From: Psammoneis japonica
Taxonomy: Eukaryota
NCBI GenBank assembly: GCA_008632985.1
Contig: QPGO01000129.1
Location: forward strand, 186,001-239,427
Length of the DNA stretch: 53,427 nt
Reading direction: 5' to 3'
The notes beneath the pieces were generated by a model. The model ran no database searches. It saw nothing but the letters and a program-made list of their open reading frames with translations, and was not told where the DNA came from. How positions within the stretch are numbered: the first letter of the stretch is position 1; each line of letters starts with the position of its first letter. The position numbers and the translations under genes were made by a program. This document shows positions 1 to 53,080 of this stretch, in pieces.

Positions 1-217
1 CAAGTCTACGCGCATTCGATACCAGGGCATCGGCAGGAAGTTAACGTCACCGTCAAGTCTCCTTACCGCTGGATATCTGGATTGATTACACTACCTTTGA
101 CCGCTGAAGACATACATTCAACGGTCATATCCAAGTCTATCCTTGATCCTCATCCCTTGATATACCTATTCATCGGTTAACGGTCAAGAACCCTACATAT
201 TCAAGGATCTTCGTCGC

Positions 218-247
218 TGAAGACATGTATATATATACATGTCTTCA
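218..247. repeat. Perfect 30-bp palindrome with (TA)5 core
   Basis: TGAAGACATG-TATATATATA-CATGTCTTCA equals its own reverse complement. Confidence 0.9.
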
Positions 248-823
248 CGGCCAAGAACCTGTACCCACTCTTCGGACTGCGGTTTTGCCACCACTCTGCA
301 GGCACACCGAGTCCATTGTACCTGATCTACCCCGGACTGCTGGTGCTCTACAGTTCTGCTGGGTCCACGAGGACGACTGTGAGAGCAAGTGGCCGTGATT
401 GCAGCCTGCGTTGGGGCGAGGGTGCTTTCCCACGTTTGTTCGTTCGTCCACAGCGCCTGACGCCTACGTCAACTGGCCAGCCTGATCGGGAAATCCAACC
501 GACATAAAATAAGAACGGTTCGGGGGTCTTGTCCACCTCCAGTCAGCTTGCCTGCAGGGGTTTACAACCCGCTGCTCCGCTCGCAAGCAACCCAAAGCGC
601 CACCAGCTTCGGGTTCGGACGTGCCGGCACAACTCTGCGGACCGGATGGGAAGTTTAGCACTTGACAACAAACGGGATGACAAAGCCCGGCGACTTCTGA
701 TTTTAAGACAGTTCAAGATTTCAAGTCAAGTCTGTTTCAAGTCAAGTCTGTTCTCACCCAAGTTTCGAGTCTACCTTCTCTTCCCAACCAGAATTGATTG
801 TCCTGACACCACTTTTGTCTGCC

Positions 824-3800
824 ATGGTTCTCACTCGTCAGCAACAAACCGATGGTTTCGAGCACGTGGTTGGAACCGTGCTTGCCCAAGGTGCTGGGAG
901 TCCTCTTCGTTTGGCTTTGGCCCAAGACGGCACGGACTCGCATCAGGAACTGTTCACGTTCATGCCGTCCCAAATCGACTCGCTTGAGTGCGACAACGGC
1001 ACTAATGCAATCCCTTTGCCCCGTGGTTATAAGAACATGTTAGCAGCACTGGTCAGTCTGTACATTGTCAAAGCACACAAAGGTCTTGACGTTGCCAACG
1101 ACTCCTCTTTGTTCACGCATGACGAGTTCCTTGCCTGCCGCCTCAGCCCCGACTGCATGTCTTCTGTGTCCATCGGCAGCTCACCCCTTGCACCTCCACA
1201 TGTCACCAACCCGACCAAGGCACGCGACCCGGTGCGGGACTTCAAGCGAGGCATCAAGCGTGATCCCACCGCTTTCACGGCTCTCAAATCCGACAAGCAG
1301 TGGCACACTTGGCACACCTCACTTGTGGCACAAGCCCGTGCCCAAGACGTCGAGTGCATTCTAGACTCGTCGTACAAACCGACCAGCCCCGAAGACAAAC
1401 TGCTCTTTGCTGAACAGCAAAAGCACATGTTCGCCGTCTTCGAACGCATCCTTCTCACCGACAAGGGCAAGGCTCTCATTCGCGAAAATGTGGGGTCTTC
1501 TGACGCACAGACCGTCTGCCGCTCCTTGTCTGAGTGCGCGCTTGCCTCCACCCGTGCATCTGTCGAGTCCTCCACCCTGCTCACGCACCTGACCACCGCT
1601 CGTCTTGGTGATGGCACTTGGAAAGGTCCGACCCACGGGTTCATCCTTCATTGGCAAGATCAGTTGCGCAAGTGCGAGGCACTCATCCCGGCCAGTGACC
1701 ACTTCTCTGAAGGACAGAAGCGCGTCATGCTCGAGAATGCCGTGCACCCTGTCGAGGAACTCCGTGCTGTCAAGAACCAAGCTGATCAGCATCGTGCGCA
1801 GAGTGGCAAGAGCCTCACATGCGATCAACACTGTGGCTTGCTCCTCTCCGCGGCAGCTCAGTGCGACAGCACGTTTCAACCCAAGACGACACCTCGAGCT
1901 CCCCGACGCGCCACACACGCACATGACGTCTGCTCCGAGGAACCGTCCGACGATGTGTTCTACGACATTGACAGCGACGTTGACGTCCTTCAGGCCAATG
2001 CTGCCCACACCCGTGGTCCCAGCCTCACCAGTGTCCAATGGAGACGTCTCCCTCCCGACCACCAACAGCTCTGGGATTCGTTGCCCGATTCCTCCAAGGC
2101 GATCATCCTTGAGCATTCTCGTCCACCTCCCCGCAACCCGCGAGCCAGTGACCACCATGAGTCTGTTACGGCCAACCTTCACGACCAACGCCTTGGGAGT
2201 GACGGTGATGTCAACTTGTCCAACACGACTCCTGCTGACTCTGGTGACTCCGCTCCACATGTGGACGCCACTTCGGACAATCCCATCCTGGCGCACCTCA
2301 CCAAGCGCAAGCCACTGCCACCCGGTGATCTGCAACGTCTGTTGTCTCCTAACCAAGCCCACAATGCCAGTCGACCGGGGCCATCCGCCGCTTCCTCTAC
2401 CCCGCCAGCTTCTGCAGATGACACAGAACTTAACGGCCGCACTCACCGCCGCGTTGACAACCACAATGTCATTCACTCTGCCTCTGCTCATCGCTCCACA
2501 TGCACTGGTGCTCCAGTCGATCGTGGGGCCAACGGCGGCATTGCTGGCGACGACGTTCGCGTCATTGCACGCACCTCTCGCCAAGTCGACGTTCAGGGCA
2601 TTGACGATCATCAATTGGTGGACATCCCCATTGTCACCGCTGGTGCCGTTGTTGAGACCCAGCGTGGTCCCGTCATCGCCATCCTCCATCAGTGCGCACA
2701 CACGGGAAAGGGCAAGACCATCCATTCCTGCGGCCAGCTCGAATGGTGCAAACAGGATGTCAACGATCGCTCTGTCAAGGTGCCCAACGGCTTGCAACGT
2801 ATTGCCACTCCTGATGGCTATGTCATCCCCATTGACATCAAGGCTGGCCTGCCTCATGTTGCCATGCGACCTTACACTGACGCCGAATGGGACACCCTGC
2901 CCCATGTCATCCTCACCGGTGATGACACATGGGACCCTTCCGTCCTCGATCACTCTGTCACTGACGACGACCAGTGGTGCGACGCGATCTCTGACCTGCA
3001 GGACGATCCCACTGCCAACCTGTTTGACGAATGCGGCAACTGCCGTCATCGTGTCGTTGTCAACGAGACCATCATGTCCGCTTCCTTGTCTGCCGATCAC
3101 GCGTCCGCCCTCGATGATCACCTCATTCCGAATGACGACGTGTTCTACGAGTGTCATCTGCATGCGATTGGCCCCCAGGGCGACGACGTTCCACCTCCGG
3201 AGCGCACTGTACAGCCCAAGGACCCCCCCTTCGAGTCTCTTCGGCCTCACTTTGGCTTCTTACCTGCCGATGCGGTCCATCGTACTTTTGACTGCACCAC
3301 GCAGTGCGCCCGCATGCCCGCCGGTGCACACCTTCGCAAGGCCTACAAATCACCCAACCCCGCCCTTGATGTGCACCGCCGCAACGAGCCCATCACCACT
3401 GACACCGTTTGTGCCGACACCCCGGCCGTCGACTCTGGTTGCACCAGCACCCAACTGTTTGTTGGCACCGAGTCTACCGTCACTGACGTCTGCGGCACTA
3501 AGACGGACAAAGAGTTTGTCAACACACTCGAGGATCAGATCCGTGAACGTGGTGCCCCATCCAAACTCATTAGCGACCGTGCTCAAGTTGAGATCAGCAA
3601 CAAAGTGCTCGGGATCCTACGCGCCCTCTTCATCTCTAGCTGGCAAAGTGAGCCTCACCAGCAACACCAAAACTTTGCCGAACATCGATGCCAGACCGTG
3701 AAGCGCATGGCGAACACTGTCATGGATCATTTTGGTTCGCCCGCCCACACATGGCTGCTGGCGCTCATGTGCGTGTGCTTCACACTCAACCATGCAGCGT

Positions 3801-6488
3801 CCCCACGTCTCCACTGGCGCACGCCCCTCGAGACTCTCACTGGCTCCACCCCGGACATCAGCCCGTTGCTTCGCTTTCATTGGTGGGAACCCGTGCACTT
3901 CCACCTCTTGTGACTCCGATTGGCCGTCCGAATCCCGTGAGTTGCGTGGACGCTTCGTTGGCATTGCTGAGCACGTCGGCCACCAGATGACCTTCAAGAT
4001 TCTATCTGAAGAGACTCAGAAGATCCTCTGCCGGTCCAACGTCCGCTCCGCTGCCCCCGATCCTGTCGTTCGAAACCTGCGTCTTGATCCTCCTGATGGG
4101 GAGCCACCTGAACCCATCATCAAATCTCGCCATGACGACAACCCCGTCGACTCTCCTGATGGGGAGATCAGGACACCCAAGATGCCAGTTTTCGATCCGC
4201 AAGACATCATTGGACGTGCCTTCCTCATGCAGCCACAAGAGGACGGACAACGCCACAGAGCTCGCATCGTCAAGGCCGTCGAAGACCACGAATGGAAAGT
4301 GAATGGCAATCCCGAGCTCACTAAGTTCGTCTGCTCTGTCAACAATGACGAATGCGAGGAAGTCCTTGCCTGCAATGACATCATGAATCACATTGAGCAA
4401 GAAGACGAAGATGCCACTGTTTGGAAATTTCGACGCATCGTGTCGCACGAAGGACCTCTGAAGCCTCACGACCCAACCTGGAAAGGCTCCAGCTACAACA
4501 TCATGCTTGAATGGGAAAGTGGGGAGATCACGTCCGAGCCTCTTGCCATCATCGCCAAGGACGACCCCGTCACCTGTGCCATCCATGCACGAGAGAACGG
4601 ACTCCTCGACACGGATGGCTGGAAGCGGTTCCGCACCATCGCGAGGCGCCAAAAGAAGCTGTTTCGCATGGCCAACCAAGCCAAGCTTCGCTCCTTCCGC
4701 ACTGCACCTCGCTACAAGCATGGACACGAAGTTCCCCGGAACTACAAACACGCCATGTCACTAGACGAACGCAACGGCAACCGCAAGTGGGGAGACGCAA
4801 CTAATCTCGAGATGGACCAACTCGACGAATACAAAGTCTTCCATGACTGCGGGCCCTTCAAGTCTTCCACTCCTCCTGCGGGACACAAGAAGATCCAGTG
4901 CACCCAGGACGACGTGAAACACGACGGTCGCCACAAGGCACGACTCGTAGCCGACGGGCACCTCACGGACGTGCCTGTTGACAGTGTCTGCTCCGGAGCA
5001 GTCTCCCTCCGTGGCCTTCGGCTGATGATTTTCCTGGCCGAACTCAACGAGTTGGAGACATGGGCCACCGACATTGGCAATGCCCACCTTGAAGCCACCA
5101 CCAAGGAGAAGCTTTACATTGTAGCTGGACCCGAGTTCGGCAAACTCGAAGGACACATCCTTGTCATCCACAAGGCACTGCATGGACTGCGCAGCTCCGG
5201 TCTCCGCTGGCACGAGCGCTTCGCCGACTGCCTGCGAGCTGAAGGCTTCTTCCCCTGCCGCGCCGAACCCGACATTTGGATGCGCAGGAACGGCGACCAC
5301 TGTGAATGCATTGCCGTTTGTGTGGATGACCTCGCCATTGCCATGAAGGACCCTCAATCTTTCGTCGACACTCTCACGGAAAATCACAAGTTCAAGCTCA
5401 AGGGCGGGACCCATTGAGTTCCATCTGGGTTGCGACTTTTCCCGGGAACCCGACGGAACCTTGTGCCTGTCTCCGCGCAAGTACATCGAGCGCATGGTCG
5501 ACAGCTGTGCCCGACTGTTTGGGGAGAAACCTGCCACCAACGCCCTGTCACCTCTAGAGAAGGGTGACCACCCCGAACTGGACACTTCCGAACTGCTGGG
5601 ACCCGATGGCATTCACAAGTTCCAGTCTCTTGTTGGTTCACTCCAATGGGCAGTGTCCCTTGGTCGAATTGACATTACCACGGCTGTCATGTCACTCTCT
5701 AGCTTCCGAGCTGCGCCCGTCAAGGCCACTTGGACCGTGCCAAACGCGTCTGTGGGTGCCTCTCCGAAATGCGACACGGTGCTCTCCACGTTCGCACGGA
5801 AGAGCCCGGCTGTTCGGATCTCCCTGCTCCGGCCTGTGAATGGATGCATTCCGTGTATGGTGAAGCAGAAGAGATGATCCTGAAGGACGCTCCACCGCCC
5901 CTTGGCAAGTTCGTCACTGCCACCCACTACGTCGATGCAAACTTGTGCCATTGCATGCTCACCGGACGCTCTGTCATGGGAATGCTCCACTTCCTCAACA
6001 AATTCCCGGCTGATTGGTTCTCTAAGAAACAAGCCACCGTGGAGACTGCGACCTGCGGGTCTGAATTTGTTGCCGCAAGGACTTGTGTTGAGCAGATTGT
6101 CGACCTGCGCATCACCCTGCGCCACCTTGGCGTCCCGATCCGTAACGTTAGTTACATGTTCGGTGACAACAAGTCGGTTGTAGACAGTGCCACCATCCCA
6201 CACTCCAAGTTACACAAGCGACACACCGCACTGTCGTTCCACCGTGTGCGTGAGGCAATTGCCTCTGGTTGCCTTGAGTTCCACTTCATCGAAGGCTCCC
6301 GCAACCCTGCTGACATTCTCAGCAAGCATTGCGGTTGCTCCCAAATCTGGGACCTTCTCCGCCCCCTCATGTTCTGGAACTTCATTCCATCCGAAGTCGA
6401 ATCTGTTTCTGTGGCTCCTCAAGCAAACTGGGGAGTGACAGGATTTGAACAGGATTTAGGTGCGCGCGAAGTGTCGTGCGCTGTTTAG
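824..6488 (+). mobile_element. Ty1/Copia (CoDi-type) LTR retrotransposon gag-pol, decayed
   Basis: Order gag (FKRGIKRD...)-protease-like (VDRGANGG)-integrase (TDTV/SDRAQ/NFAE)-RT (KARLVADG, DIGNA[H]L, KAL[H]GLRSSG, V[C]VDD)-RNase H (WFSKKQATVET, GDNKSV, NPADILSK). ATG at 824. Frameshifts near 3905, 5410 and 5718. Confidence 0.95.
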
Positions 6489-6701
6489 TTTGCCGTGCAC
6501 AGTTTTGTGTGCTTTAGTTCCGCGCGTTCACGCGCGATGTAGTTTGCTTTCGAGCCACAAGGCTCACAAGAATAACAACAGTAGCCCGATCATACCGACT
6601 TGCACGTCTTTCGGCTCCTGCAACGGTCTCTGAGCGGAGACTCATCTGCTGTTTAGACAGCAGCAAGGAGTTGTTGTTTGAATTCTTGCCATTTGCCTTC
6701 A
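6430..6701 (+). repeat. Polypurine tract followed by probable 3' LTR of the Copia element
   Basis: GGGGAG directly followed by TGACAGG at 6436, the usual PPT|TG junction. The right end (...TTCA near 6701) is a guess, and no matching 5' LTR is visible in the window. Confidence 0.55.
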
Positions 6702-6797
6702 TTTCCTGTCATCCAGCAAATTAGCAGGTGCCTGCACAGTCACCTGAGTGCAGAAAGTCAGCAAATTTACACAAATTTAGCAAGTTATTTTGTGCTG

Positions 6798-7991
6798 TCA
6801 CAGTCGCCTGAGAATGGTCTCTTCCTCTAGAGAAAGGGGGACTGAATTGTCATTCTTGCCCACTGCAGCACTCTTCAGGCAGAGAGACACGCAGAAGAAC
6901 TCGTCGTTTGAGTTTGTCCTGCTGGAGATGCAGCGGCACTTGGTGGGGTTAAAAATGATGACATCACCAAGCCAGAGTGCAACGGAGATGCCTTCGGTGG
7001 GGAAGCAGAAGTGCGCCACAATCCCGTCATTCATGGTGTGGCTGCCGGACGGAGGGACTCCCACCATGGTGACTGCTGACAGGAAGAAGTCCTGGTCCCG
7101 ATGGGCGTTGAGGAAGACATTGCACCCAGCCGCCAGAGAGGAGAAAATGCCATCTGACCGCACCAGGGATTTCCAGTTGTGAAACTTTTTGACACGAGCG
7201 ATGCCCTCAAGGATGGCACAGTCCACGCACTCATTGACAAGGTGCTCCATGCGTGAAAGAAGTCTGGTGAGGTGGTGAGTGTGTTGGTCGGCCATGCCAG
7301 GCTGCTTGCAAGAAATTCGAGCGTCTCTCGTGGCAGCCAGGCCAATCGTGGAATGCTTGCTCCTGTCCATCTCCATGAAGGTAACGCGTTGTTTGCTGCG
7401 CACGGTGGACTGGGCGGTGCAGCATTCTAGTGCTTTGAGCGCTCGGTGCTGAGCAACTAGTTCTGCTGGGTTGGGGGAGCTGAACACCACAGCAGAGCAC
7501 GGCAGCAGGGTGCAGGTGTTGTCGCAGCGGCAACCGTCCAAGCCAAAGAAAGGCTTCAGATCGAGCACAGGGTCACAGATGACCAGAGGAGCCAATTCGG
7601 CAAAGTCAATGTCAGCAAGACAACGTGGTGCAGGCTGAGTGTAGTCGCCGTTGCAAACTAGAGTGCGGTTGGCTACGCAGTGCATGGAGAGACTCTCAGT
7701 GGCGCACGGTGCAAGTGGAACGAGGCGAGCAATCTTGGATGTTTTCCTGCTGGCGCGGCTGCGGATTCGCCTGCGGCTGCGGCGGGCCTTGCGAAGTGGC
7801 GGTTGAGCCCTCAACACGTTCTCACACATCCTGGTGCGCATTGACGATGCGGTGTTCGCAGAGAACGTGTGTGCGAACTTGCCGGTGAATGTTCCGCTGC
7901 TTGACACTGTCACTGTCGTCTTGGCAGTGCCCAAAGCAGAGCTCTGTCGACAGGGACCGGCGGACTCCAGGGGAGTGGGGTCAAAACCCAA
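6798..7991 (-). pseudogene. TET/JBP-like 2-oxoglutarate/Fe(II) dioxygenase domain, mutated
   Basis: IFSSLAAG[C]NVFLNAHRDQDF (HxD at 7095-7103), FCFPTEGISVALxxGDVIIFNP, K[CR]C where YHC is expected, and CVSL[C]LK. Motif order and spacing match the TET/JBP double-stranded beta-helix core. Confidence 0.6.
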
Positions 7992-8093
7992 TCAAGAGAT
8001 GTGTCTGCTTTCCGTTGCCTCAAGAGCACCCAAAGCAAAACTCTGTTGACAGGGACCGGCGGACTCCAGGGGAGTGGGGTCAAAACCCAATCG
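7932..8093. repeat. Tandem duplication with 99-bp period and ~62-bp near-identical core
   Basis: CAAAGCA.A.CTCTGT.GACAGGGACCGGCGGACTCCAGGGGAGTGGGGTCAAAACCCAATC starts at 7932 and again at 8031. Confidence 0.9.
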
Positions 8094-8678
8094 CGAGAAG
8101 TGTTTGCTTGTTGTCAGGCTGCGAGCTGCACGTCCCAAACCCCCACACTGTCGAGACCGGCTGCAACTCGATCGCGACAAGTGCTTGTCGTTGGTGGGAT
8201 GACGCAGCGAGGCACGAGGCAGTTGCGACATGGTGTGTCTCAATTTGAAATGTGTTTCAAAGTGCAACGACGGAAGTGTTGTCGCGTTGTTTTTGTCTCC
8301 GCGGAGGGAGGATCATCCCACGGCAATCTCAGTGCGAGTTCTCGCGTGGAAGTGCATCACGTGCCATGCCAGCTTGTGCGTTTGAATTGCACGGATGTGC
8401 AAGTGCGGCAACGATGAGAAGCAGGCCGAGATTCAAAACAAATTTTATCGCCTGAAGGCGTCTTGTTGTTTCAACGCGTCTGCATGTCTGTTTAAAATGA
8501 CTTCATGCATCGATCCACACGCAGGTAGAGGCAGCACGCCGCGTTTGAAAATTTCGCGCGCATGGAGGGCGCGATGGTAATTTTGCACATTCTGCGCACG
8601 TCACAGTTTGGTTTGGAAACGCAACGTCTGGTCGAACCCGCTGCAAGCAAGGTTGATGTTGCCACAAGGTTGGATGCG

Positions 8679-9540
8679 ATGAACCATCATTGCAGAAGTG
8701 TCAGGGAGTTTCATCTTCAAACGGCTCCGGACTCCACGTTCCAGAGCAGGCGTGTCTCCGGAGACGGAAGCGGATCTTCGCACGGCGGCGAAGTTGGCTT
8801 CGCTTTGAGCAGCGAAGTGTTTTTGAACAAACGGCGTGAATCACACCTGCGATGCATCTGTCGACATGGGCAGGGGAGTTGCCGGACCCAGCATCGGGCT
8901 CAAGTTACTTCGTCGCCGTTGCACCGTGGTGAGCATCGAGGCCGACCACGATCGTCACCAAGAGGCTGCATGTTGGGCTCATCGTGCTGGCCTTCGCTCG
9001 AACGGCGGGTTGGAGTTAATCAACAAGTCATTCTTGGACGAGAGGCTGGCTCCTTTGTGGAAAAAGAAAGGACTCAAGGTGTTCTTCAACAACTGCAACT
9101 CCCGCATGGTCGACGACAAGAACACACAGCAGAAGGCAGAGGCGATGCTTTCGAAGTTGTGTCGTGCTGGGACCGTGGTGGTGGCGCTAGATCCGCTGTT
9201 CGCGTCGCACGCGGGAGAGTGGATGTGCGAGTCCTTCACGGCGGATCACCATGATGGCGACTTTTTGTGGCACAGCGGAGACGTGAAACATCTCGTCTTC
9301 CACAAGCACACCAAGAAAGAGGAGACTTCTCAGTCAACCAGCCAGCACATGCGACGTCCCACTCCGACACACTTGGAATGGAAGTGTTTGCCCGTCGCGA
9401 AACAGCCAATTTTACTTAAGAACTCAACTGAACTGTTTTTTCACTGTCACTGTGCCAGATGTCACACGCTAGTTGCTCTGCTCAATTCGCCATTGCTTCG
9501 CGGTGACAACAAGTTGTCGTCGGAGATGGTGCATGCTTGA
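8679..9540 (+). pseudogene. DOT1-like class I SAM-dependent methyltransferase, frameshifted
   Basis: S[H]GGEV (YGE-like), then after a frameshift near 8830: VDMGRGVA (motif I), VVSIEAD (motif II), ELINKSFLD, VFFNN (DOT1 FVNN signature) and GTVVVALDPLF (compare PGxRIVSLKP). Confidence 0.6.
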
Positions 9541-9631
9541 AGAGACAGAGGAAAGCTGAGTTGTGATCGACACTTGGTTTGCTGAACATTTGCAAATTTG
9601 CACTGCACCGGCAAAAAAAAAAAAAAACAAC

Positions 9632-10501
9632 TCAGTCTTCGTCGCTGTCCTGAAGCACCAAGTCGTCATCGACGTTCAGGTCAACTTCGCAGTTGAGCTT
9701 GACATCATCGTCGGCCTCTTCTCCAGCTTCTTCTGCCGGAGCTCCAATGAGACGACAGAGTTCCACAGGCAACGACCCCTCGTAGAAGCAACTGTGAAGC
9801 AAGTTCTTGTTTTGGGTGCACCAACCGATGTGAAACTGACCACCTTCCTTCTGAAGCTCGGCAAGCGCCGCCTCGTTGCTGATCACTTCGGACCAAACAG
9901 CATCCTTCATCCAGAAGAAGTCGTCTTCAATGAAGACCTCGGTGTTGTTCTCAGGGTCATCGTTGAGCTGCTTCGCAATGTGCTTCCCGAGGCCGCGCAC
10001 TTTAGCATCGGTTGGGACTTCTTCGAGGAAGATGAAGAAGAGATGCACGGCGCAGTTCTTGGCGTTCGTCTGCAACTCGCCTTCGTGAACCCACCTGCCA
10101 GCGCAAGGGTGGAATCTGACTTGAACCGCCCACGGAGTCCTGATGCGAAGGTCATCAAACAGAACCTTCTCCAACCAAACATTGGCCAAAAGGGGATTCT
10201 TGGCTTGGAGACGAAAAACAACGCCTTTCTTGCGGCCGACAGTGACGGTGGTGCAGCGCAGGAGGGCGTCCTCATCGGAATGGCTGCCATCATCAGAACC
10301 GGCGGATTTGGAAAGCTTGAACCCGTGCTTGGCAAGGCAGTCTTCCGGTTCAAGGTCGTCGTCGGTCAAGCCGTTGGTCTTGCGGGGCGGACTTAGTTTC
10401 TTCAACAGAGCATCAGAAAACTTTGTCTTTGCCTTCTTCTGTTTGGTTTCGGCGACTTTGGCTTTCGCAGCCGGGGAGGTCGTTGTGTTTCTTTTGCATG
10501 C
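9632..10501 (-). CDS. Unknown transposon-associated protein with Lys-rich N-terminus and acidic C-terminus
   Basis: Protein-like frame (MA[C]KRNTTTSPAAKAK...DDDLVLQDSDED) with the same TpA depletion as its neighbours. No family recognised. Confidence 0.45.
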   Translation of the reverse strand, partial: ACKRNTTTSPAAKAKVAETKQKKAKTKFSDALLKKLSPPRKTNGLTDDDLEPEDCLAKHGFKLSKSAGSDDGSHSDEDALLRCTTVTVGRKKGVVFRLQAKNPLLANVWLEKVLFDDLRIRTPWAVQVRFHPCAGRWVHEGELQTNAKNCAVHLFFIFLEEVPTDAKVRGLGKHIAKQLNDDPENNTEVFIEDDFFWMKDAVWSEVISNEAALAELQKEGGQFHIGWCTQNKNLLHSCFYEGSLPVELCRLIGAPAEEAGEEADDDVKLNCEVDLNVDDDLVLQDSDED

Positions 10502-11038
10502 CATTGAATCAGTTGGAGAGAAATTGTGGGAACAAAAAGTGCGATCGTCCAGAAGTGCCAAGAAAGACCCAGTGGAGCTGCGTGCGTCATGCCAAGGAGA
10601 ACTGGCAACGTCAGCAACTAGATCCAAACACGTCGAACTGCAACAAGGTGACCTTCCAGGTGTCAGCACTTGCAAGTGGTGCATGGATTCAATTTGAACA
10701 AAACAGATGCAAGGATCGGAGCACGCAAAGTTGCACTGAGTTTGCTGAAAATGCACAAAATCACATGCAGTTCCGTCCGTGCTTTGTGTGCATTTCAGCC
10801 ATTGCCGCCGCGCGGCCATCGCGCGCGAAATCTAGTCGCCAAACGGTCGACGCCATCGCTGTCACTGCTGTGCCGGCAGTTAGCTGAGGTGGGCCCATCA
10901 CCCATTTGGAGGATTCGCGCGCACTTTGGAAACACGAATGACATCAATCGCACCGTCATTGCCACATGACTGCCCCGCCACTCGTTGAAGCGTGATTCTA
11001 CGGAATTTGCGCAAAGCTGCGCCCGCCACCAAGATTGC

Positions 11039-11145
11039 CGAAACAACTTGAACAAGATCCGAATCTTGCCCCATGGAATGTTCAGAGCAGATGGTCGAAA
11101 CAACTTGAACAAGATCCAAATCTTGTCCCATGGGATGTTCAACAT
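11039..11145. repeat. 57-bp tandem duplication
   Basis: CGAAACAACTTGAACAAGATCC starts at 11039 and 11096. Confidence 0.85.
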
Positions 11146-11296
11146 CGACGAAACTAAGTGGGATGTCGTGTGTCTGGTGCGAAGAAGGACGTGGGAGGAA
11201 CGCACACGTCACTCTTCTGTCGAGGTGAAAGAGGCACACTATCGTCTCACTTTTTTGTGACAGAACCTTTGCGCAAAGGGAGACGAAAAGCATCCA

Positions 11297-11990
11297 ACTG
11301 CGGTGATTGGGCCACACCGATTGCAGTTCTCAGTTCTCACAGTGACCTGGCAATGCAGGTTGTGAGACAACGCACAAGCTCAGCTGCAGTGACTGGACGA
11401 CACCAGTCGCAGCTCTCACAGAGACCTGATCGCACAGGTTGTGAGAACATGACACAACGCTGTGGTGATTGGATGGCACCGACGCAGTTCGTCAAGCAAC
11501 CAATTCACTTGGCTGCGGTGACTGGACAACACCAGTCGCAGCTCTCACAGCAACCTGATTGCACAGGTTGTGAGTGAACAACACAGCGCTGCACCTCGTA
11601 ACGCAGGTTGTGAGATGACGCACAAGCTCAGCTGCAGTGACTGGACGACACCAGTCGCAGCTCTCACAGAGACCTGATCGCACAGGTTGTGAGAACACGA
11701 CACAACGCTGCGGTGATCGGGCAGCACCGACGCAGTTGGTCAAGCAACTGATTGACTCGGCTGCAGTGACTGGACAGCACCAGTCGCAGTGCTCACAGCG
11801 ACCTGATTGCACAGGTTGTGAGAAGATGACACAGCGCTGCGGTGAGCGGACAGCACCGACGCGGTTCGTTGATCAACTGGACAGAACCACTGCAGTGACT
11901 GGACGACACCAGTCGCAGTGCCACAGGTGGTGAGAAAACACACATCGCTGTGGTGATTGGACAGCACCGATTGCAGCTTCACGGTGATCG
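11297..11990 (+). repeat. ~5 copies of a 129-bp tandem repeat upstream of the Helitron Rep
   Basis: GC[A/G]GTGACTGGAC..CACCAGTCGCAG recurs at 11386, 11515, 11634, 11763 and 11892 (spacings 129, 119, 129, 129). Confidence 0.9.
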
Positions 11991-12063
11991 CACTGAAAAA
12001 ACAACTGTTTTTGCTGAGCAACTTCTTGAAATTTGTTGAGTTGGAGCACCAGCTCAAATTAAG

Positions 12064-15000
12064 ATGGACGAGGCCAACTCCCGTTTTTGCAACGCAATCA
12101 ACAGAAAGTTTGAGATGCTCCACCTGCATGGAGACGGAGAATTTAGACCACACGCATGTTCAGTCTGTGATGTTCTGCTGAAACCCAGAGAAGTTTGCTG
12201 CTTGCCGCTTGAAACATTGGAATCAGCAAGAAACTCACTCACCCCTTCAGACTGGAACAGCGTGTCTGATCGTCTCAAGTCCTGCCACACTGTAGAGCAT
12301 GAAGATGCTGATTGGATCAAAGACCCGCCACTTTCTCCCCGCGCCCAATGCGCAGTGCAGGAAGACAGACGACACGTTGATGGATTCACTTGCTGCAGCG
12401 AATGCCGAAGAAGCCTGAGAAGAGCCGTCATGCCAATGCATGCGATGGCGAACAACTGCTGTTTCTGCACCCCGCCGCGTGAACTGTTGTCTCTGACCAA
12501 AGCAGAGTTGGCAATGCTCACACCAGTGAAAACATGCGGGTGCTGCTTCAGTTGCCTTGGCGGCAAACAGAAGAAGCTTCAGGGAAGTCTGACATGCTGC
12601 AAAGTCAAGATGCAAAGCATCGTAAGAACTGTTGTGCACTTCGACGTGCTGAATTTGCATCAGAATGTGATTGCACTGATGACTGGAAAGATGACTCCGG
12701 AGCAAAGACAACTTGCACGTTCAAAGAACAGAATTAGGACGCACTGCATGCCAAGGGCGATGGAATGGCTGTTGCACCACAACCAAGAGTGGGTGCACCA
12801 ACAGACAAATCTAGACGAAGTCAGGTGCAATCTGCGGAATCCCGCACTTGTCGACAGCACCAGCGAAGAAGAAGGAGAAAATGCAAACATTGAGACCTCA
12901 GAGTCATTTCACATTTGCTTTCCTGATGGAACCATGTCTCCTGCGACCGGTGGTCAGCGCAACCTGGACTGCTTCAAAGATCTTGTGCACGAAGCCACTG
13001 CCAACGGATTTGATTTAGAGGCACAAGCACAGTTGTCCAAAGAATCTGCGAGTGATTTCAAAGGCAACAACTTCATTGACGCGTGTCTGCTGCAGTTTCC
13101 TTTTGGCAGAGGAGGAATCAATGAGACGAGAATGAAGAAAGACAGAAGTCTCACAGATGGCACCAACCTTGCACACTGTGCCGACCACTCAGCACGGATT
13201 TCCCAGCCTCACTTCCATGAGCAGCTCTTCGTGTTAACATGCCACAACTTGACAATGAAGCAAAGGATGCTGCAGAGCGCAGGGTGGAAAGTCAGGGACA
13301 AGAATCAGGCTGCACAGTTTGCAAACGAACTGACAGTGGACGATGTGGACAGAGCTGTTTGTGATCGCAACTTGGGCGAGAGAAGAGATTGTGGACTCGG
13401 GCACCACTTTTTGCATGCACTCGACGTTGCATCTGCGTCTCTGCCACACAGTGACGAAGCAGCAAAGAAAATGAGGAGAAACGCCAAAACTCACCAGCAT
13501 CATTTTGGTCAGGGTGGCATTTTCTTAACCGTCAGTCCGGACGATGCAAATTCGTTTCTTGTGCAACTGCACTCGGGTGTCATCCTGGACCCAAACGAAG
13601 ACGTGACACAACTGACGGACGAAATTCTTGCCAGCAGGGCCAAGCAACGCAATGAACTGCGTCTAAAGTTTCCCGGTCTAACAGCCTTTGCATTTGAGTG
13701 CTTGTTTGACATTGCAATGGAAGAGGCAGTGGGTCAGGATCTGAGTGCCAACCAACCAAGAGAAAACTTTAACTTCTGCATTGGCAGGCCAGCCACATTT
13801 TTAGCCGCAGTTGAGGAGCAGGGACGTCCAACAGTGCATGGACACATGCAGATCTGGTTTGCATCGATCAACAATGCAAGAGAGAAACTGCACTCGCCAA
13901 TGAGACAGATCCGACACGAAGGTGCTGAGTGCCTTGCCAACATGGTTCAGAAGATCTGCAGCACGGAGTTAATCTGCAGCGAGGACTTCAGCACTGACGC
14001 GTTGCGTGAAGCATTTGATCATGACTGCACAGTGCCAAAAATGCACCGCACCTCTCCAAAAGCAGTGGACGACCAACAGCTAAGAAACCTGAGGCATGAA
14101 GATGGCCAGCAGTCAAAGAACGGAATGTTTGCTTGTTGTCGTCACTGCACCAAGCACTGGACAAACGTCGAGTTTGTAGAAAGCTTTTTGCAGTCACGGC
14201 ACTGTGTGCCTGGCCTGACTCGCTGTTGAGACAACCATGCAAAGCGACTGAAAGCAATGTGTGTGCAATGCCAGCGAAGTGGTCCGCAAGGGACAACAGA
14301 GGCACACATGCCGGATGCAGCTTACAACCATCACATGCACGTTACGAAGTCGTGTTTTCCCAAATGCGCAGAGTTGCGTAAAATGCGTAAAAAAACCCCA
14401 CACGAGGAACTGGACACGCAGTCAAGGAAAAGGAAACGAGAGGAGCTCAAACTGGGTGACTGCCGTCACAGGCAACCAGCTGCTTTGTGTCCAAACAACT
14501 TGGCAAGGAATGCAGATGACACTCAGATAAAGTGGTTCAGCTGGGATGGAACTTTTGCGCATCGGTGCGTGAAGGAAGTTGTTCCAAAGAGGAGAAAGCA
14601 CGATGCTTTTCAAAACGTGTCGTGCCCTGCAACAAGCAGATCAAAGCTGACATGCAACACAAACATTGCTTTGTTGATGCCTGGACCGTCTGCTCAATGC
14701 ACGACCAAGTGCATCCCAAAAGATGCCCAGAAAGATGACACTGCATCGTACGACGAAGTGCTTCGAACTGCGAACAGGATGGCGACGGAATTGTGGAAAC
14801 ACACATCTGATGCATCGGAAGCAATCAGACGTCTCACATGGGGTGCTCACTCGCATGACAAGACGAACGTCATTGGACCACCACTTGCGTCTTGCACAAC
14901 AAGGAACGGAAGCCGTTTCATCGAATCTCATTTGACCGCATGGTGCCCCTTGAAAGACATTGTCAGCACACTAGAAAGAGACGAAGTGTCTGTGACTGCA

Positions 15001-17795
15001 GCCCATTTTGGCGATGCACTGTTCTTCCAATGCCAGGCCTTGCACCACCTGTGTCGTCCAACAGCACTGGAGAATCTCAGTCCGTTTGCGTTTTTTAGTG
15101 AGTGCGAAGTTCTTCACAACACAAGGAAAAACGAACACGGCATGATGATGTTCGACAACAGAGCGCACAGGCACCCGTCTCACAATTCAACAAAGAATGA
15201 GTTTCTTCAAGGTGTCAGACAGTGACAGCAACCGCGATTGTCAAAAGCACTTCAGTGTGATTTTCCTGATGCAGCCAAGTTTGGCAGTTGCCTCATGGAT
15301 CCGCAGCAACCAACAACACCAGACAAAGAATTGTGCTGCAAGTTGGCATTGGCCTTGTTCGCGCCTTACAGAACAATGACGGAACTCAAACCAATGACCC
15401 ACGCACACCTGCGTGAATTCCAACTCTCCGCAGTGGCCGGTGTCATTGCAGAGGAAATCTTGAACTTCTTGCAGAACCTGCAGGATGCCAAGTCCAACTG
15501 CCTTCGTCTCAAAAGTGCATCTGACGATCTGCAAAGAAAGACGGAGCAATTTAGACCTGCTGACGTTGCGTTTGACTGTTGCAAAAGTGACGAGGAAGAA
15601 GGTCTTTCAGGCGCCGTTCAGGGTCAACCACTGGATGCACTCTTGGAAGAAATGGCAGAGCAGCCAGAAGACGATGACATTGGGTTGAGCGACCAAGCAG
15701 TCATTCCTGCGCATTTGAGCGGCAAACGTGCAAGACAGAAAGGTCCACACATGGGTGGTTGCAAATGCTTGGCAGACGTGCACACTGACCCACCAAACGA
15801 GGAAAGCCAGGTCAATGAACGACAACTTTTTGAGAATCTAGAGGGTGGCGATGACACCGACGAGGAAGACCAGAATGAAGGAGTGCAACAACACATCCAC
15901 AGCAGACCACTGTCAAGAGACAACATTGTTCGAGTGACACTGACTAGAACGCAAAGAACAAGAAGGTCGTTTGAGGACATGACAGGTTTGGAAGAACACG
16001 TCGATGTGCGTCAAGCAAACGGATCTGCAGCAAGCATCGTAGACTGGGCTGGGAAAGCAAGACTGGACAGGCAACAGCAGCGTGCCTTTGAAATTCTAGC
16101 AGGAACCTTTGTGCTCACTTGCTGCCAAGACACTCTTCAAGACGAGACGTCACACAATGGACTCAACAGGAGAAACAGCAGACACGAGTTTGCAACAAAC
16201 CTTCGCCGATTGAAGAAACTCGTGGAAGTGCAAAGACGCAGAACGTTGCAACTTGTGTGTTTTTTACATGGTGCAGGTGGAAGTGGCAAATCAACCACAG
16301 TGGACCTCGTCGTGGAATGCGGAAGAGAGCATTGCTCGCTTGTTGAGCAGCCGTTCACAACAAGCACAATCAGAGTGACTGCACTGACCGGAGTGGCTGC
16401 GACCATTCTCAAAGGGGACACAATCCACCGAGTTGCATGCCTCATGAGAAGAAAGCAAATGACCGAAGAGCAAATTGAAGCATGGTCAGACACGAGACTT
16501 TTGGTGGCAGACGAGATTTCTTTTGCAAGCAAGAGAGAACTAGAAAAACTCCATGAGAATTTGACAGCATTGAAGAGCGAATTGAGCAAGCCACACGGTG
16601 GTGTCAACATTGTTTTCGCAGGTGACCTCAGGCAACTAGAACCAGTCGGAAAAGGAGTGAAACCACTGCACAAAGATGCATGTCCCGAGTTTCACGAGTG
16701 GATCAACTGCCACATGGAACTTCGTGGTGCACACAGGTTTAAAGACGATCCATCATGGGGAAAACTGCTCAAGAGATTCCACACTGGTGAGATCACAGTT
16801 GATGACACAGAGTGCATCAACGAACGAGCAGCTCAGAACGAAGATGATCTGCCCAGTGACCTCCGCTGTGCCACGTGCGCAAATGAGGACAGAGATGCAA
16901 TTGACACTGGCCATTCGAAAAAAGAGCAGAAACACTGCATGGAAGAGATGGAGACGTCCTTGACTCAATGTTGATTTTCAGTGACGACTTGCAGGTGCAG
17001 AATGGCACGAGACTCTGCCAACCATTTCCGGTTTGCAACAGCTTCTGGAACAACTGTGGTGAAGGAGACATTGTCATGCAATCAGGAAGAATGGATCCAG
17101 TCTTACGAATTTACAGAAGATGCAGAGTCATGACACCTTTCAACGAAAATGCAGCAAATGGTCAAGCAAATGGAACGCAAGCCACTGTTGACAAGGTCGT
17201 TCTCAAACCAGGACAGGAACCAAGACTGGTGACTTTAGACAACAACATTGGCATTCCTGCTGTGCTTGCCAGTCAGGTAGACCACGTTGTGTTGGAACAC
17301 TGCAACAAAAGCATCGACCCCGCGAAGTTTTTAGTTGAGCCAAAAACAAATGCTTTCAGGGCTTGCATCGCCAAGCCCAGCCTAATTTTAGAAGAAGGCG
17401 ATGAACAAAGGCACACTTTCCAACTGAAGGCAACCCAGCTGCCGTTTGTCATCAACAATGCCGCTGCAGGGCACAAACTGCAAGGGAGTGGAGTCCCGCA
17501 GTTGTCTGTGCACTCTTGGAGCTACACTCAGAATTGGGTGCATGTTGTGCTCTCCAGAGCAAAGACCAGAGAAGGGCTGTTCATGCGAAAGCCACCAAGC
17601 AAGGACCTGCGAAAATGCAAGGTCCCAGAAGGCTGCAAAGCCTTGACAAGACTCATGAAGGAGAGAAGCGCCACGCATTTTTCTCAGCAACAGTGCGCAG
17701 AAATGTCAATGCAGTGCGCAAACATTGGATTAGGATGCTCAACCACTGTGCAACTGTTTGGCGACCCCAACCGTAAAAATGCAGAAATTTCGTAA
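12064..17795 (+). mobile_element. Helitron Rep/helicase (RepHel), decayed
   Basis: HUH Rep motifs FLTVSPDD, VEEQGRPTVHGHMQIW and Q[C]TTK[C]IPK (YxxKY). PIF1 helicase motifs HGAGGSGKST, VADEISF, FAGDLRQLEPV, HRFKDD, ANGTQ, HKLQG and VVLSR. Split into four ORF pieces by stops and frameshifts. Confidence 0.93.
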
Positions 17796-17809
17796 AGTGA
17801 AAATGTCGA

Positions 17810-18271
17810 ATGGATTTTAACCAACAAACCAAGAAACGCGAACGCAGCCGTCACAGAAAACGCAGCAATGGAGAAAACATGGATTTGCAACAACAAACAA
17901 AGAAGGCAGACGAGCCAAAGAAAACTGGTGAGGACAAGAAAAAGGTGCAGACATGTGCGGAACTTCTTCAGTCATTGATGAACAAGGAAGACGAAGAGGA
18001 GATCACCTTGGAAGAAGCAAGAGCGGCGTTTGACCTTGCCTCGGGAAATTTTGATGTCACTTCTGCACTTGTGCAAGACAACATGACAGCGGACAGTCAT
18101 CATGTGGAAACAATGGTCACGCCCAAGGATGATTCAACCATGGAGGAGCTAAAGGCAGCATGTGCAGCGGCGATTCCACAGCGGTCGGGGAGATTTTTCA
18201 CCGAGGAGGAGATGGCGGAGCAGGAGAAGGAGCAAGCAAAGTCCCTTCAGAAGAAGCATGGCCAGAAATGA
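17810..18271 (+). CDS. Small charged protein with a UBA-like motif
   Basis: ITLEEARAAFDLASGNFDVTSALV resembles UBA helices 2-3. It lies directly downstream of RepHel. Confidence 0.4.
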   Translation: MDFNQQTKKRERSRHRKRSNGENMDLQQQTKKADEPKKTGEDKKKVQTCAELLQSLMNKEDEEEITLEEARAAFDLASGNFDVTSALVQDNMTADSHHVETMVTPKDDSTMEELKAACAAAIPQRSGRFFTEEEMAEQEKEQAKSLQKKHGQK

Positions 18272-18899
18272 TGGAATTGAGCAAATTGCAAATGACCATT
18301 TGGCAAAGACAACCGCATCAATGCGCAAAATGCACACACATGGACTTTCGCTCAAGCCGCCGCGGATTGAGTGTGGCCACAAATGAGGACCAGCTGTCTG
18401 GCAAAGAAACTGCAACAATGCGTAAATTTCGCACATTTCCACACTCACTCAATCCAACGCAGCTTGCCTTGGACAACATCAACATGCACAACTGGACAAC
18501 ATCAATGTGCACAGCCTCATGAAACCTCACAGAAGACAGAACAGTCAGAAGCAAAACAACCAGCACCGCGCACTGACGCATGTTGGTCATGTCACGTGGG
18601 TCGCGCAAAAGTGCGCACCGAAATGACCATTGTGTGTTGCAATCAATTCGAACGCCCGGCGCAAAATGCAGCAAAATGATTGGTGCAGGCAATCATCATG
18701 GCTCCATTTTCTGACAGTGGCGAGGGCAGCAATCCAAAATCTTTCGGTTTCAGACTTCGATCTAGAGAGTTCCACCTAAAAGAGGAGGAACCAATTGATG
18801 CTGAACAGGTTTTTTGTGCTGGTTTGCTCTGCAAAAGTCTAAAATTGGAGGCAAGGCCATGGAGCTCTGCAGATTTGAGCACAAAACAAAGAATTTTGA

Positions 18900-21800
18900 A
18901 TGTCAAGTCCTGAGTGTCTTTGCAAAGAGGGCTTTGCCGGCATGGAAATGCAATCATTTCACACAGCTGAGCACTTCTTGACAGATTTCAACAGGCTTGC
19001 AGCTTGCAACCAGGGTGGGGCATTGCTGCTTGGCTGAAGGTCTGAACTCTGTGGCAGCGCAGGATGTCTCTGGCACAGGAAGATCCTGGGAGGAAAACGC
19101 CAATGCAAAGAGCTTGGTGTTTGCCTTTTTGTGCTGATCAGGAGTTCTGCAAGAAGCAAGACAGACCTTGCCTTTGAGGCTCTTAAAGTTGTGGCTGAAG
19201 CTCCTGCTTTAAACCCCAGTGGGGGAGCCAGAAATGCTGCTTTGCAAAGCAACAGCAGCCAAGCCAGCATTGTGTGAAAAAAAATTTTTGGAGAAAAGCA
19301 CTTGATTTTGGAAATGGGAATGTTCCCATCATTTTTCACACCGCTGTTTTGCCAGTCAACTTGCTGCTCAAACTGTGCATTTTGCATGTGGGGCTGTGCT
19401 TTTAATTTTCTGTTGTCAATCAATTTGCCCAGCACTGCACAAAACAAACATGCCTCCTGTGGGAATGAATGAGGGGGACCAACCAAAATCAAAACCTGCA
19501 CTGCCAGACATTTTGACAAGAAACGTTGAGAATGTCATCCAGAAGCAGCAGAGATGCACTGAGCATGAGCTTGAATTTTTTGCACCTGTGCTTTGAAATT
19601 TTTCTGTGAAATGCTGGTGTTCAGAGTTGGGCATCATGCATGTTTTGCTTGAGGAAAGAAAACAACTCAGCCAGCCAGCTTCAACACCTGTGCATCAGGA
19701 CATTTCACAGCTGGTGCACAATGCTGCCTTCAACAAAAACCATGACAAGATGCAAGATGACAACAATGTTTTTTCCAACATGTTTTGCAAGTGTGTGGAT
19801 GCCTCACAAAACCCCAAAACAACTTGTGATCCAATCAGGTGGACAATGAAAACAAAAGCAAAGTTTGCTTGCATGCTGAAGAAGTTGCTTTCTTTTGTTT
19901 GTGTGAAAGTGCAAAACAGTGTTGGCAAAAACTTCTGGCAATGTCATGTTGCAAAACAGCAACACGCTGCAGTCTGCTCACAACAACGCACACTTTTCAA
20001 CATGCTCCCTCTCAACAAATGAGGCACTCACTCAAAATCTGGCACAAACCCTCCTGACAATGGTCGCAGACTGTGTGCACAGTTGTTGGCATCACTCCCA
20101 TGTGGGGGGTGCACCCAGCTGCAGCTGCACATGGAACCACAGTGTGTGCTCTCTCCACGTCACATGCTGAATGGCTGCATTTGCCGCCGGCTGGCACAAG
20201 TCATGTTGAGCAGGCTGTGTTTGTCAAATGTGCCGCTTGTCAACCAATGATTTTGAGGGTCAGTTGTTTCCTCCTGCATCACCAAAATTCTGGCTGATCA
20301 ACCTTGCTGCCACCCAGCAAATGTCATGATGCAAAAACGACTGTGTGAAGAGAAACTCGTCACTCTGCCACGTTCCTCTAAGATGCAGAGACCCTCTCAC
20401 ATCACATGTGCAGCATGCATGCAGACAAAAGGTTGTTTTTGTCACGCCCTTTGTGACATTCAAAGGCTGCAACACGTCGCCGTGATGCACCAACTCTTGT
20501 TGGCAGCTGCATGTTGCACTCCTCCCCATGTGTCACGCGTCCATGCGGCTCTTTGCTGATGTGTGCTGACACTGCACGGTTTTGGTGGAACAGTGTGGGC
20601 ACGTGCGAAGGAACATGCAGTTCTGCACAGAGTTTTTGCGCGTTGGACAGTGATCAACGTTGCTGCAGACAACTCCCACTCAGGGTTTCGAACCCCTGGC
20701 CTCCTGCCTGATGGTTGCGATGAACCACTCCGCCATGAATTCATGATGCAGCATGCATGCAGACAAAAGGCCATTTTTGTCACGCCCTTTGTGACATTTA
20801 AAGGCTGTGCTGAACCATGCTTGCCTGACATCAGCTGGTCACCACCGTGCTGGCAGCAGTTTTCTCATTGGCAACAAATGGGTGGTGCACGTCAAGCTGC
20901 AAACAAGTGCCAATTTTGGCACAGTTTTCATTCATCAGAGTGAGCTCAAACTGGAGCGGCTGCAAAAAATCCGGGTGGTGCATGACTTTGCAAGGACGGT
21001 TCTCCAAATTGTGCGCAACAACTTTTTGCACAATCCATCAGATGATCAGCCGCAGCCCAAAGCTTCCACTGAAACAAGCAATGCCCCCTTCTGGAGCAGG
21101 CAAAAAGAGGGCACAAGAGGGGCACAGATGTGCATGGTGCACTTTGCAACAAGCACACATGGGTCATGCTCTCAATCCCCAGCCATCATGCCAACAAGCG
21201 AGCCAAGACAACATGCTTTGATCTGCACGCTGTGAAGTGCTCACATTGAGAGCCAAGACAAGCTTTGAGCAATGCTTCCAATTTGAGCACAGAGGAGCTT
21301 GATGTGTGCGTGCGCGAAGCAACAAGCACACTGCACAGCTCGCAGCAGATTGTTTGAGAGAGCAAAAGCAAAGCGCACCTGCTCAACCAGAAACAGCTCT
21401 GCAGTTTTTGTCTTGACAGCGATTTTGCAAGCAACTGTCTTTGCACACTCAACAATGCTGAGCTTTGTTTGCAACGGGGGGCAAGAACTTGCGGCTTTGT
21501 TGCTCGGCTTGATTTTGAGACCTGTGCTCCAATGACAAGCGTGGCTTCCTCTGCTTGAATGCTGCCCAGATGACCGCACACTGTGCAGAGCAGACCACTG
21601 GAATGTGGGCATTTTGATGCTGTTCCAGAGCAGCACAGCTGACAGCCATGCATGCTGTCTGTGCACTCTCTTCCTGAGCACTGGTCTGTGCCATGCTCCG
21701 CAACGAGATGCTGTGCTCAGCCAAGTCATGTGCCACAAGCTCGTGTGTGACAGTCATGATCACCAGCTGCACAGTTCTGTGGAAATTGTGCACACAGCAA

Positions 21801-37943: not shown

Positions 37944-38058
37944 CTGTCGGCGGACCTTTGTCCAGAAACGGCCAGAAATGCCATTTTGAGTTTTGGGGCC
38001 ATCCAAGAATTCGAGTTTGAGCTTTTCTAGCCGTTTCTGGACAAAGGTCCGCCGGCAG
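37944..38058. repeat. 35-bp inverted repeat (33/35 identical) with 45-bp spacer at the transposon edge
   Basis: CTGTCGGCGGACCTTTGTCCAGAAACGGCCAGAAA at 37944-37978 pairs with 38024-38058. Confidence 0.9.
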
Positions 38059-38160
38059 TTGAGTTCGTCATGGTTTTGCCTTTACAAACATCCAATTTTG
38101 AACAAAAAACTCCTCGCAATTGATCTCGAATGACACTTTCACCTTTTCTTCATTGGGAAA

Positions 38161-41100: not shown

Positions 41101-41226
41101 GACTCAAGCGGACCCAAAGTTTGCTTGCGACTCCGTCGCATGGGATCATGCTGCAACTCATTCTGGCTGTGGATGACTGCCTTGCTGCGAGAGTCTTTCT
41201 TCTTGCTGGATGATTTCCGCTTCATT
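38161..41226 (-). mobile_element. IS630/Tc1-mariner-like DDE transposase, decayed
   Basis: FGQDE, FELDHSSGH and TPK[C]HPE...VE[C]AWG[C]AK (PKYH...IEYxWG motif). Upstream pieces 39944-40954 and 40911-41226 are joined by frameshifts. Confidence 0.8.
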
Positions 41227-49730: not shown

Positions 49731-49786
49731 TCATCAAAACAAGCAATGTTTTGCAGTGGTGTGACTGCACTCTCATCTTGATCAAC

Positions 49787-53075: not shown

Positions 53076-53080
53076 GCGGG

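Follow-up and report, generated by a model that had tools for sequence, protein, structure and literature searches.

The window analysed here is a 53,427-nucleotide stretch of the diatom Psammoneis japonica (contig QPGO01000129.1, positions 186,001 to 239,427), and our subject is one open reading frame (ORF) within it that resembles the TET/JBP dioxygenases. The frame occupies positions 6798–7991 of the minus strand, is intronless, runs for 397 codons from stop to stop (its own stop at 6798–6800) and is a decayed copy. It lies in a transposon block, where a sequence-only reading of this DNA had already placed it. The pol ORFs of a very high-copy copia-type retroelement (RVT_2, 1e-18; 3702–6488, plus strand), which include its reverse transcriptase, abut the 3’ end of the TET-like gene. 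On the other side, beyond a TpA-depleted spacer (7992–12039; observed/expected (O/E) TpA ratio 0.09) with no recognisable protein, the ORFs of a Helitron Rep/helicase (RepHel; DUF6570, Helitron_like_N and PIF1) begin 4 kb away at 12040 and continue on the plus strand to 17795. The TET-like gene is on the strand opposite to both the copia and the Helitron ORFs.

The frame, its protein family and its decay

The sequence-only reading had given the gene an extent of 6798–7450. All the motifs that it named (HRD, FP..GI.VAL..GDVIIF and SL[Y]LK) are present on the minus strand within that interval, but the frame is actually open to 7991 and reaches 541 nt past the end then assigned. The proximal metal-binding HxD is intact as H297-R-D299-Q-D301 (7089–7103; H297-R-D299 at 7103–7095, D301 at 7091–7089). 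The string 'FPTEGISVALWLGDVIIF' forms residues 330–347 (7004–6951) and 'SLCLK' residues 369–373 (6887–6873), and similarity to relatives spans from about residue 22–38 to residue 396. The openness of the frame is weak evidence by itself: TpA is almost absent from the repeat blocks of the window, so TAA and TAG stops are rare there in every frame, and the TET-like ORF itself has 8 TA dinucleotides in 1194 nt. A tblastn search of the window with the protein found no second copy, the sole match being the frame itself. The 5’ end of the frame is spanned by two copies of an 81-nt direct repeat (7930–8109; 99-nt spacing, 91% alike).

The frame belongs to a genuine protein family, with similarity far beyond chance. 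A phmmer search of 1.84 billion representative proteins returned 632 relatives (clusters at 50% identity) at E ≤ 1e-3, 364 at ≤ 1e-10 and 3 at ≤ 1e-30, led by a 306-aa protein (6e-61, 42% identity) and a 626-aa protein (1.8e-44). The family is large and not annotated in Pfam, and its members come from diatoms and from other eukaryotes, most of them uncultured. The sources label its members merely 'hypothetical', 'unknown' or 'uncharacterized'; none of ten relative clusters checked has a functional name, one of them being an 'unknown protein' of Seminavis robusta. The family consensus reads NV[YF]LxxHxDxDF ... YFCFPxxGxAVALRPGDxLxFNPxxxHCxSSR ... CxSLYLKTAVVGxNDNS. Among 149 relatives, H297 and H353 are conserved in all, D301 in 148, K373 in 147 and D299 in 146; Arg198 is a further conserved basic residue (119 of 123 relatives).

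The family keeps an HxD...H iron-binding triad that is broken in the window copy. Codon 353 (6933–6935) is CGC, encoding Arg in place of the distal Fe-binding His that stands in 149/149 relatives, none of which has Arg. Loss of the facial-triad His abolishes iron binding in the 2-oxoglutarate (2OG) oxygenase class. The damage extends to other conserved positions. Codon 165 (7497–7499) is TGC, encoding Cys where the 'PR' motif of the family has Arg in 112 of 116 relatives and Cys in none, and R340W introduces a Trp found in 0/149 relatives. All three conserved Tyr are gone (Y213H, Y327H and Y371C); the last is a TpA>TpG change at codon 371 (TGC, 6879–6881) in a 'SLYLK' motif that retains Tyr in 142 of 149 relatives. 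Tyr accounts for one of the 397 residues of the window protein, compared with 3.2% across the family, and the share of Cys is doubled. The overall rate of deviation, 19%, is unremarkable (relatives: median 12%, maximum 29%), and it is the identity of the changed residues that matters; the protein departs from the family at 11 of 58 columns of at least 70% consensus, one of which (column 8) is an alignment artefact from the N-terminal Met of relatives. The first in-frame ATG, judged from the translation and the N-terminal alignment, is codon 51 (7839–7841). Since it sits downstream of a conserved N-terminal motif, H-T/V-F/Y-K..SS.R at about residues 38–50, the original start appears to be lost as well. 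Given the substituted distal His, the other altered residues and the missing start, the copy is, to judge from its coding sequence, catalytically dead. The Arg at the distal His position and a probable lack of activity had both been proposed from the sequence, and both hold.

Other copies in sequencing data are less mutated. One public run (X1) contains the stretch, and 16,998 of its contigs align on positions 1–20000 at 85–100% identity; transitions make up 415 of the 446 places at which they differ. Among the 40 of these 446 variant places that are listed, which do not include codon 353, codon 371 is TAC (Tyr) in one contig and codon 165 is CGT (Arg) in another, and 16 contigs differ at position 7713. 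Because other contigs keep the consensus Tyr371 and Arg165, several copies exist and the changes in the window copy are derived.

Predicted fold and sequence-level recognition

An AlphaFold (AF2) model computed from a 150-sequence alignment reached a predicted local distance difference test score (pLDDT) of 89.9 and a predicted template modelling score of 0.88, whereas the single sequence without relatives gave a pLDDT of 33.9 and an unusable model. Foldseek placed CcTet first (1.9e-9; its top ten chains are all CcTet), followed by TET2, CMD1 and NgTET1, and then by FTO and AlkB. When VIA-align was applied to Foldseek’s top 1000 chains, TET2 scored Z 18.6–18.7, CMD1 at most 14.8, NgTET1 14.7 and CcTet 14.4; the next family after the TET class was FTO/ABH3 at 10.9. 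The superposition on TET2 aligned 267–274 residues (model residues 26–392) at a root-mean-square deviation of 3.8–4.7. Independently of Foldseek, a scan of 48,161 representative chains gave TET2 18.6, NgTET1 14.4, CMD1 13.6 and CcTet 13.2 as its four best, with OsALKBH1 and FTO next at 10.7 and thymine-7-hydroxylase at 8.9. The family is thus predicted to be a double-stranded beta-helix nearest to TET/JBP rather than to other 2OG oxygenases, in agreement with the fold that had been proposed from motifs. Neither a non-nucleic-acid oxygenase nor the absence of a beta-helix fold emerged from the structure comparison. As a lead only, a language-model atlas returned a Bacillariophyta cluster as its first match (0.96), and 23 of 30 matches fell in a cluster set whose listed example carries Tet_JBP on 13% of its members.

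The catalytic domain of human TET2 (PDB 4nm6, 7ne6, 5d9y, 9hxv) is the best structural match to the model, and its HxD...H arrangement is common to the family. Unlike TET2, the family has no large low-complexity insert, and sequence identity is about 10%. TET enzymes carry an Arg that binds 2-oxoglutarate on the strand after the distal His. In the present family the putative counterpart of that position, the column two residues before the conserved Ser369, holds Cys in 103 of 149 relatives, whereas Lys373 is invariant; Lys373, Arg165 and Arg198 are conserved candidates for the role. The sequence-only reading was right that the usual 2OG-binding Arg is not obvious, yet its apparent absence is a trait of the whole family and not a sign of decay.

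Profile methods did not recover this relationship. Even at E ≤ 10 Pfam assigned the window protein to no family, and none of 130 relatives reached the gathering cut-off of PF12851 Tet_JBP (34.9 bits), the best scoring 17.6 bits; the Pfam search that the sequence-only reading had suggested thus left the protein and its relatives all short of the mark. Sub-threshold Tet_JBP matches of 12.4–17.6 bits occur in 11 of the 130, and in 1 of 40 relatives of a smaller set. They lie in the C-terminal part of the profile, the best stretches starting at 40–118 and ending at 146–162 of its 164 positions. Profiles of 40 and of 150 relatives matched no TET chain, CMD1 included, among the PDB sequences, and phmmer of the window protein against the same sequences had no match. 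A word-indexed protein search returned nothing with the single protein and, with the 40-relative profile, two family members without annotation.

One could envision a 2OG oxygenase of another class, AlkB/FTO-like or acting on small molecules, whose likeness to TET is the shared double-stranded beta-helix and nothing beyond it. The unreached Tet_JBP cut-off would fit such an enzyme, as would the equally weak Cupin_2 or AraC_binding matches in a similar number of the 130 relatives and the Z scores of 10–11 attained by AlkB/FTO chains, the best of which score 10.5–10.9. However, TET-class chains stand 2.5–8 Z units above every other family with 224–278 residues aligned, and the alignment takes in a region N-terminal of the core (model 26–388 against TET2 1147–1921). 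The low score of thymine-7-hydroxylase also argues against a small-molecule enzyme, and we consider a non-TET class very unlikely.

Transposon setting and the loci of relatives

A metagenome scan returned 80 loci with relatives of the gene, 31 of them at least 4 kb long. Neighbouring ORFs were scanned with Pfam in two sets (31 ORFs from 8 loci and 55 from 22 loci); 9 near-duplicate neighbour ORFs were left out, including all of those of L031, so that 30 of the 31 loci are covered. The relatives show a repeated association with Helitron and Plavaka-type elements. In locus L001 a DUF6570 ORF, a 1589-aa Helitron_like_N/PIF1 ORF and a 626-aa TET-like gene follow one another on one strand, and in L048 the TET-like gene adjoins a 2415-aa DUF6570/PIF1 ORF. 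TET-like genes adjoin Plavaka transposases recognised by Pfam in L009, L023 and L042, a homologue of Plavaka transposases recognised by BLAST in L022, and a DDE_Tnp_4 ORF in L037. The Pfam scan recognised no transposase among the neighbours at the remaining loci.

Several other arrangements recur among these loci. Six of them (L027 and L029–L033) share a homologous neighbour ORF of 1150–1250 aa without a Pfam match (L027:2-3433, L029:4284-7859, L030:987-4754, L032:1746-5315). For the L030 ORF the language-model atlas, again as a lead only, points weakly to Plavaka and Transposase_21 clusters (0.85–0.89), and these ORFs may be diverged CACTA/Plavaka-type transposases. In L015–L019 (e.g. L015:4258-19471) a same-strand block composed of a 1415-aa ORF, a 440-aa TET-like gene and ORFs of 499, 380 and 1351 aa recurs on five metagenome contigs at 88–98% identity; the neighbours of the TET-like gene have no Pfam match, and the block may be an unclassified large mobile element. 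A protein of 650–780 aa, likewise without a Pfam match, adjoins TET-like genes in L009:7320-9401, L014:2017-4368 and L021:4336-6273, and may be a second passenger gene; in L009 it is accompanied by the Plavaka transposase and an ankyrin protein. Fused forms of the TET-like domain also exist: in L042:515-2614 it shares a 700-aa ORF with a fungal Zn2Cys6 cluster at the N-terminus, and in the 986-aa protein P0072 a sub-threshold Tudor-like match lies N-terminal of it.

Taken with the composition of the block, these associations lead us to regard the window frame as probably a hypermutated, catalytically dead copy of a DNA-transposon accessory gene that encoded a TET/JBP-fold Fe(II)/2-oxoglutarate dioxygenase. 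Whether it belonged to the same Helitron unit as the RepHel ORFs 4 kb away is close to an even call. A quick maximum-likelihood tree of 34 rows with SH-aLRT supports pairs the window copy with the protein P0002 (98), and the nearest row on a contig of at least 4 kb is the Helitron-linked L001, within a set supported at 90. The RepHel proteins of the window and of L001 are homologous (27–33% identity). In tblastx comparisons of window positions 1–22000 with L001, L048 and two further loci (L002 and L003), the TET-like gene was the only shared part apart from RepHel in L001. Summed contig depth in run X1 is 69,000–224,000 over the copia region (1–6670, peaking at 6004–6670), 3,000–5,700 throughout 7338–18676, an interval that holds the TET-like gene, the spacer and the Helitron, and 61, the level of unique sequence, at 19344–20000. 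As depth summed over all contigs is not copy number, the even values do no more than hint at a single repeat family comprising gene, spacer and RepHel.

Alternatively, the gene may have been carried by a different element, Plavaka/CACTA-like or unclassified, and have come to lie beside the Helitron through nested insertions. This is a less probable origin, though one that deserves weight. The gene is antisense to the Helitron and separated from it by 4 kb of spacer that codes for nothing recognisable, Plavaka transposases adjoin its relatives in three loci by Pfam and one by BLAST, and the Helitron-linked rows do not form one clade in the tree; the copia element abutting its 3’ end also shows that the block is nested. 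However, a tblastn search of the window with 31 neighbour ORFs of the relatives matched only through L001 RepHel and uncovered no Plavaka-like or other transposase, and both the even depth and the kinship with L001 point to the Helitron.

Several results weigh against the reading of the frame as a dead TET-type gene of a DNA transposon, and against its Helitron version in particular. Besides the Pfam and PDB profile searches that recognised no TET domain and the Cys at the position expected for the TET 2OG-binding Arg, only 6 of the 30 scanned loci have a neighbour that Pfam names as a Helitron, Plavaka or DDE transposase, with one more Plavaka-like by BLAST. In the window the gene lies upstream of the Helitron on the opposite strand, whereas L001 has the two in tandem, and no Helitron termini or hairpin were found. 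The depth comparison has the limit already given, and substrate and activity are entirely inferential: thymine, N6-methyladenine or a CMD1-like reaction are possible. The surroundings of position 18,770, roughly where the depth falls, revealed neither an inverted repeat nor a hairpin. TpA depletion does not mark the Helitron end, because it continues to about 22,000. For the copia element, repeat search, self-BLAST and a purine/pyrimidine-collapsed alignment detected no long terminal repeat pair in the window. Directly upstream of the Helitron ORF, at 11345–11969, are tandem 248-nt units that are 90% alike and have a 129-nt sub-period.

A host gene, either a domesticated TET-like enzyme or its pseudogene, could also lie between transposons by chance. 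TET/JBP genes do occur as host genes in other lineages, and no transposon termini were identified around the TET-like gene. Its composition is nevertheless that of the repeats (TpA O/E 0.15, compared with 0.51–0.61 in host genes), its catalytic His is lost, and many diverged contigs cover it, among them the 16 that differ at 7713 and those that keep Tyr371 and Arg165. We regard a host origin as very unlikely.

Transposon-encoded TET/JBP dioxygenases of fungi were reportedly treated by Iyer et al. in 2014, a study cited in turn by Kojima in 2025. As far as the available text goes, Kojima 2025 finds that 11 lineages of fungal DNA transposons, Helitron1, Helitron2 and Plavaka among them, carry TET/JBP genes, and describes a diverged fungal 'PE type' with the hallmark HxE that is detectable by structure only (PMC12730594). 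The family described here is similar to these in being a TET-fold oxygenase carried as a DNA-transposon passenger, some fungal types also being seen by structure comparison only; it differs in its diatom host, and in that the window copy is dead and the boundaries of its element are undefined. By its hallmark it is not of the PE type, because HxD and not HxE is kept (column 299 is Asp in 146 and Glu in 1 of 149 relatives). The words 'diatom' and 'stramenopil' appear nowhere in that paper (PMC12730594). Algal TET/JBP genes on Helitrons are also on record: the accessible portion of a Chlamydomonas study reports them in Helitron2-2_cRei and Helitron2-3_cRei and locates CMD1 itself in a DNA transposon, DNA-1_cRei (10.1101/2022.06.16.496473). 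CMD1 is among the four closest solved structures to our model (Z 13.6–14.8), although Chlamydomonas is a green alga of a different supergroup from diatoms. CMD1 makes 5-glyceryl-methylcytosine with vitamin C, and nothing in the present results singles out the co-substrate of the family described here. A red-alga preprint adds 2OG oxygenases captured by Helitrons and Plavaka.

The sequence-only reading had known of no Helitron-borne examples. Such examples are already published for fungi (PMC12730594) and for Chlamydomonas Helitron2 (10.1101/2022.06.16.496473), at least in the parts of these sources at hand; what is new is the diatom case and a family that Pfam misses. A full-text literature search, extending to the available text of PMC9998398 and PMC3145265, yielded no account of a transposon-borne TET in a diatom or stramenopile, nor did a literature search turn up any paper on a TET-type enzyme or on a route of active demethylation in diatoms. 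The carriage of TET genes by transposons, seen in fungi and green algae, is thereby extended to stramenopiles. Because it is large, unrecognised by Pfam and structurally nearest to TET2, the family provides specific candidates for enzymes that would form oxidised methylcytosine in diatoms and other marine protists.

Intact members of the family would oxidise a modified DNA base, most likely 5-methylcytosine (5mC), on or near their own element, and such oxidation could counter 5mC-based silencing. We base this on the reactions catalysed by the enzymes of the four nearest solved structures and on the published hypothesis for fungal transposon TETs, for which the available text of Kojima 2025 proposes anti-silencing as the role (PMC12730594). 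The sequence-only reading had raised the same possible role for the window gene. In diatoms 5mC is described, in the part of the source available, as restricted to transposons (PMC12344493).

TpA-directed mutation in the repeat blocks

The TET-like ORF has a TpA O/E of 0.15, against 0.51–0.61 in four host genes of the window (Gpi16, cyclin, glutamate synthase and sulfotransferase), and a CpG O/E of 0.71, against about 1.0. The repeat blocks as a whole (about 500–22000, 38000–42500 and 46000–53427) have TpA O/E values of 0.03–0.19 and an excess of CpA and TpG (1.3–1.8). Counts of TA per 500-bp bin are 0–8 there apart from four bins, which reach 12 at most, and mostly 15–35 in host-gene stretches. 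This depletion accounts for the abundance of long open frames that overlap one another in the repeats. The changes of the window copy fit two signatures of these blocks, TAY>CAY/TGY (TpA>CpA/TpG) and CGN>TGN (CpG decay). After insertion, the repeat would have been hit by the TpA>CpA/TpG process and by CpG decay, and their joint action could remove catalytic residues without creating new stop codons. The main value of the relic is as a clear example of TpA-directed mutation that kills a gene while its frame stays open.

The TET-like gene is a victim of the TpA mutation process. The sequence-only reading had proposed that it might be a cause, through thymine oxidation as a chemical route to T>C at TpA. 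On that account intact members would be JBP-like thymine hydroxylases whose mispairing products, 5-hydroxymethyluracil and 5-formyluracil, change T to C at TpA in repeats; a broader version would have them act on thymine, or on 5mC with deamination-prone products, as the agent or a component of the hypermutation. Extreme TpA depletion and CpA/TpG excess do coincide with the repeat blocks, some TET/JBP enzymes act on thymine according to the available text of two papers (PMC12344493, PMC12730594), and no result here fixes the substrate. However, the gene is itself mutated, and self-mutation brings a transposon no gain. Forty loci of at least 3 kb that carry relatives have TpA O/E values of 0.35–0.94; even the two lowest, which are the Helitron-linked ones (0.35 and 0.45), are nowhere near the 0.03–0.19 of the repeat blocks, and copia and repeat tracts without any TET gene are hit likewise. 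The proposal is unsupported, and we give either version scarcely any credence. If true, it would link an oxygenase carried by transposons with a chemically new type of genome defence resembling repeat-induced point mutation.

The same signature has been reported in Bigelowiella natans, where, according to the available part of a preprint, integrated viral DNA undergoes T/A>C/G hypermutation at TpA only, with an adenosine deaminase as the proposed agent (10.64898/2026.01.13.699255). Its adenine-deamination chemistry also speaks against a thymine route, and the available part of the preprint makes no mention of TET/JBP (10.64898/2026.01.13.699255). In both systems the TpA>CpA/TpG signature is confined to foreign or repeated DNA, here around and within the gene. 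Unlike the viral inserts of that chlorarachniophyte, the targets in the diatom are transposons, and the likeness concerns the process and not the gene (10.64898/2026.01.13.699255, as far as available).

Two minor observations concern the remainder of the window. The window ends at 53082–53427 in a short-period array with steps of roughly 45 nt. A fragment of the glutamate synthase gene (35661–37031) is 66–86% identical to 120 proteins listed, whose organism names are all diatoms except for two Triparma.

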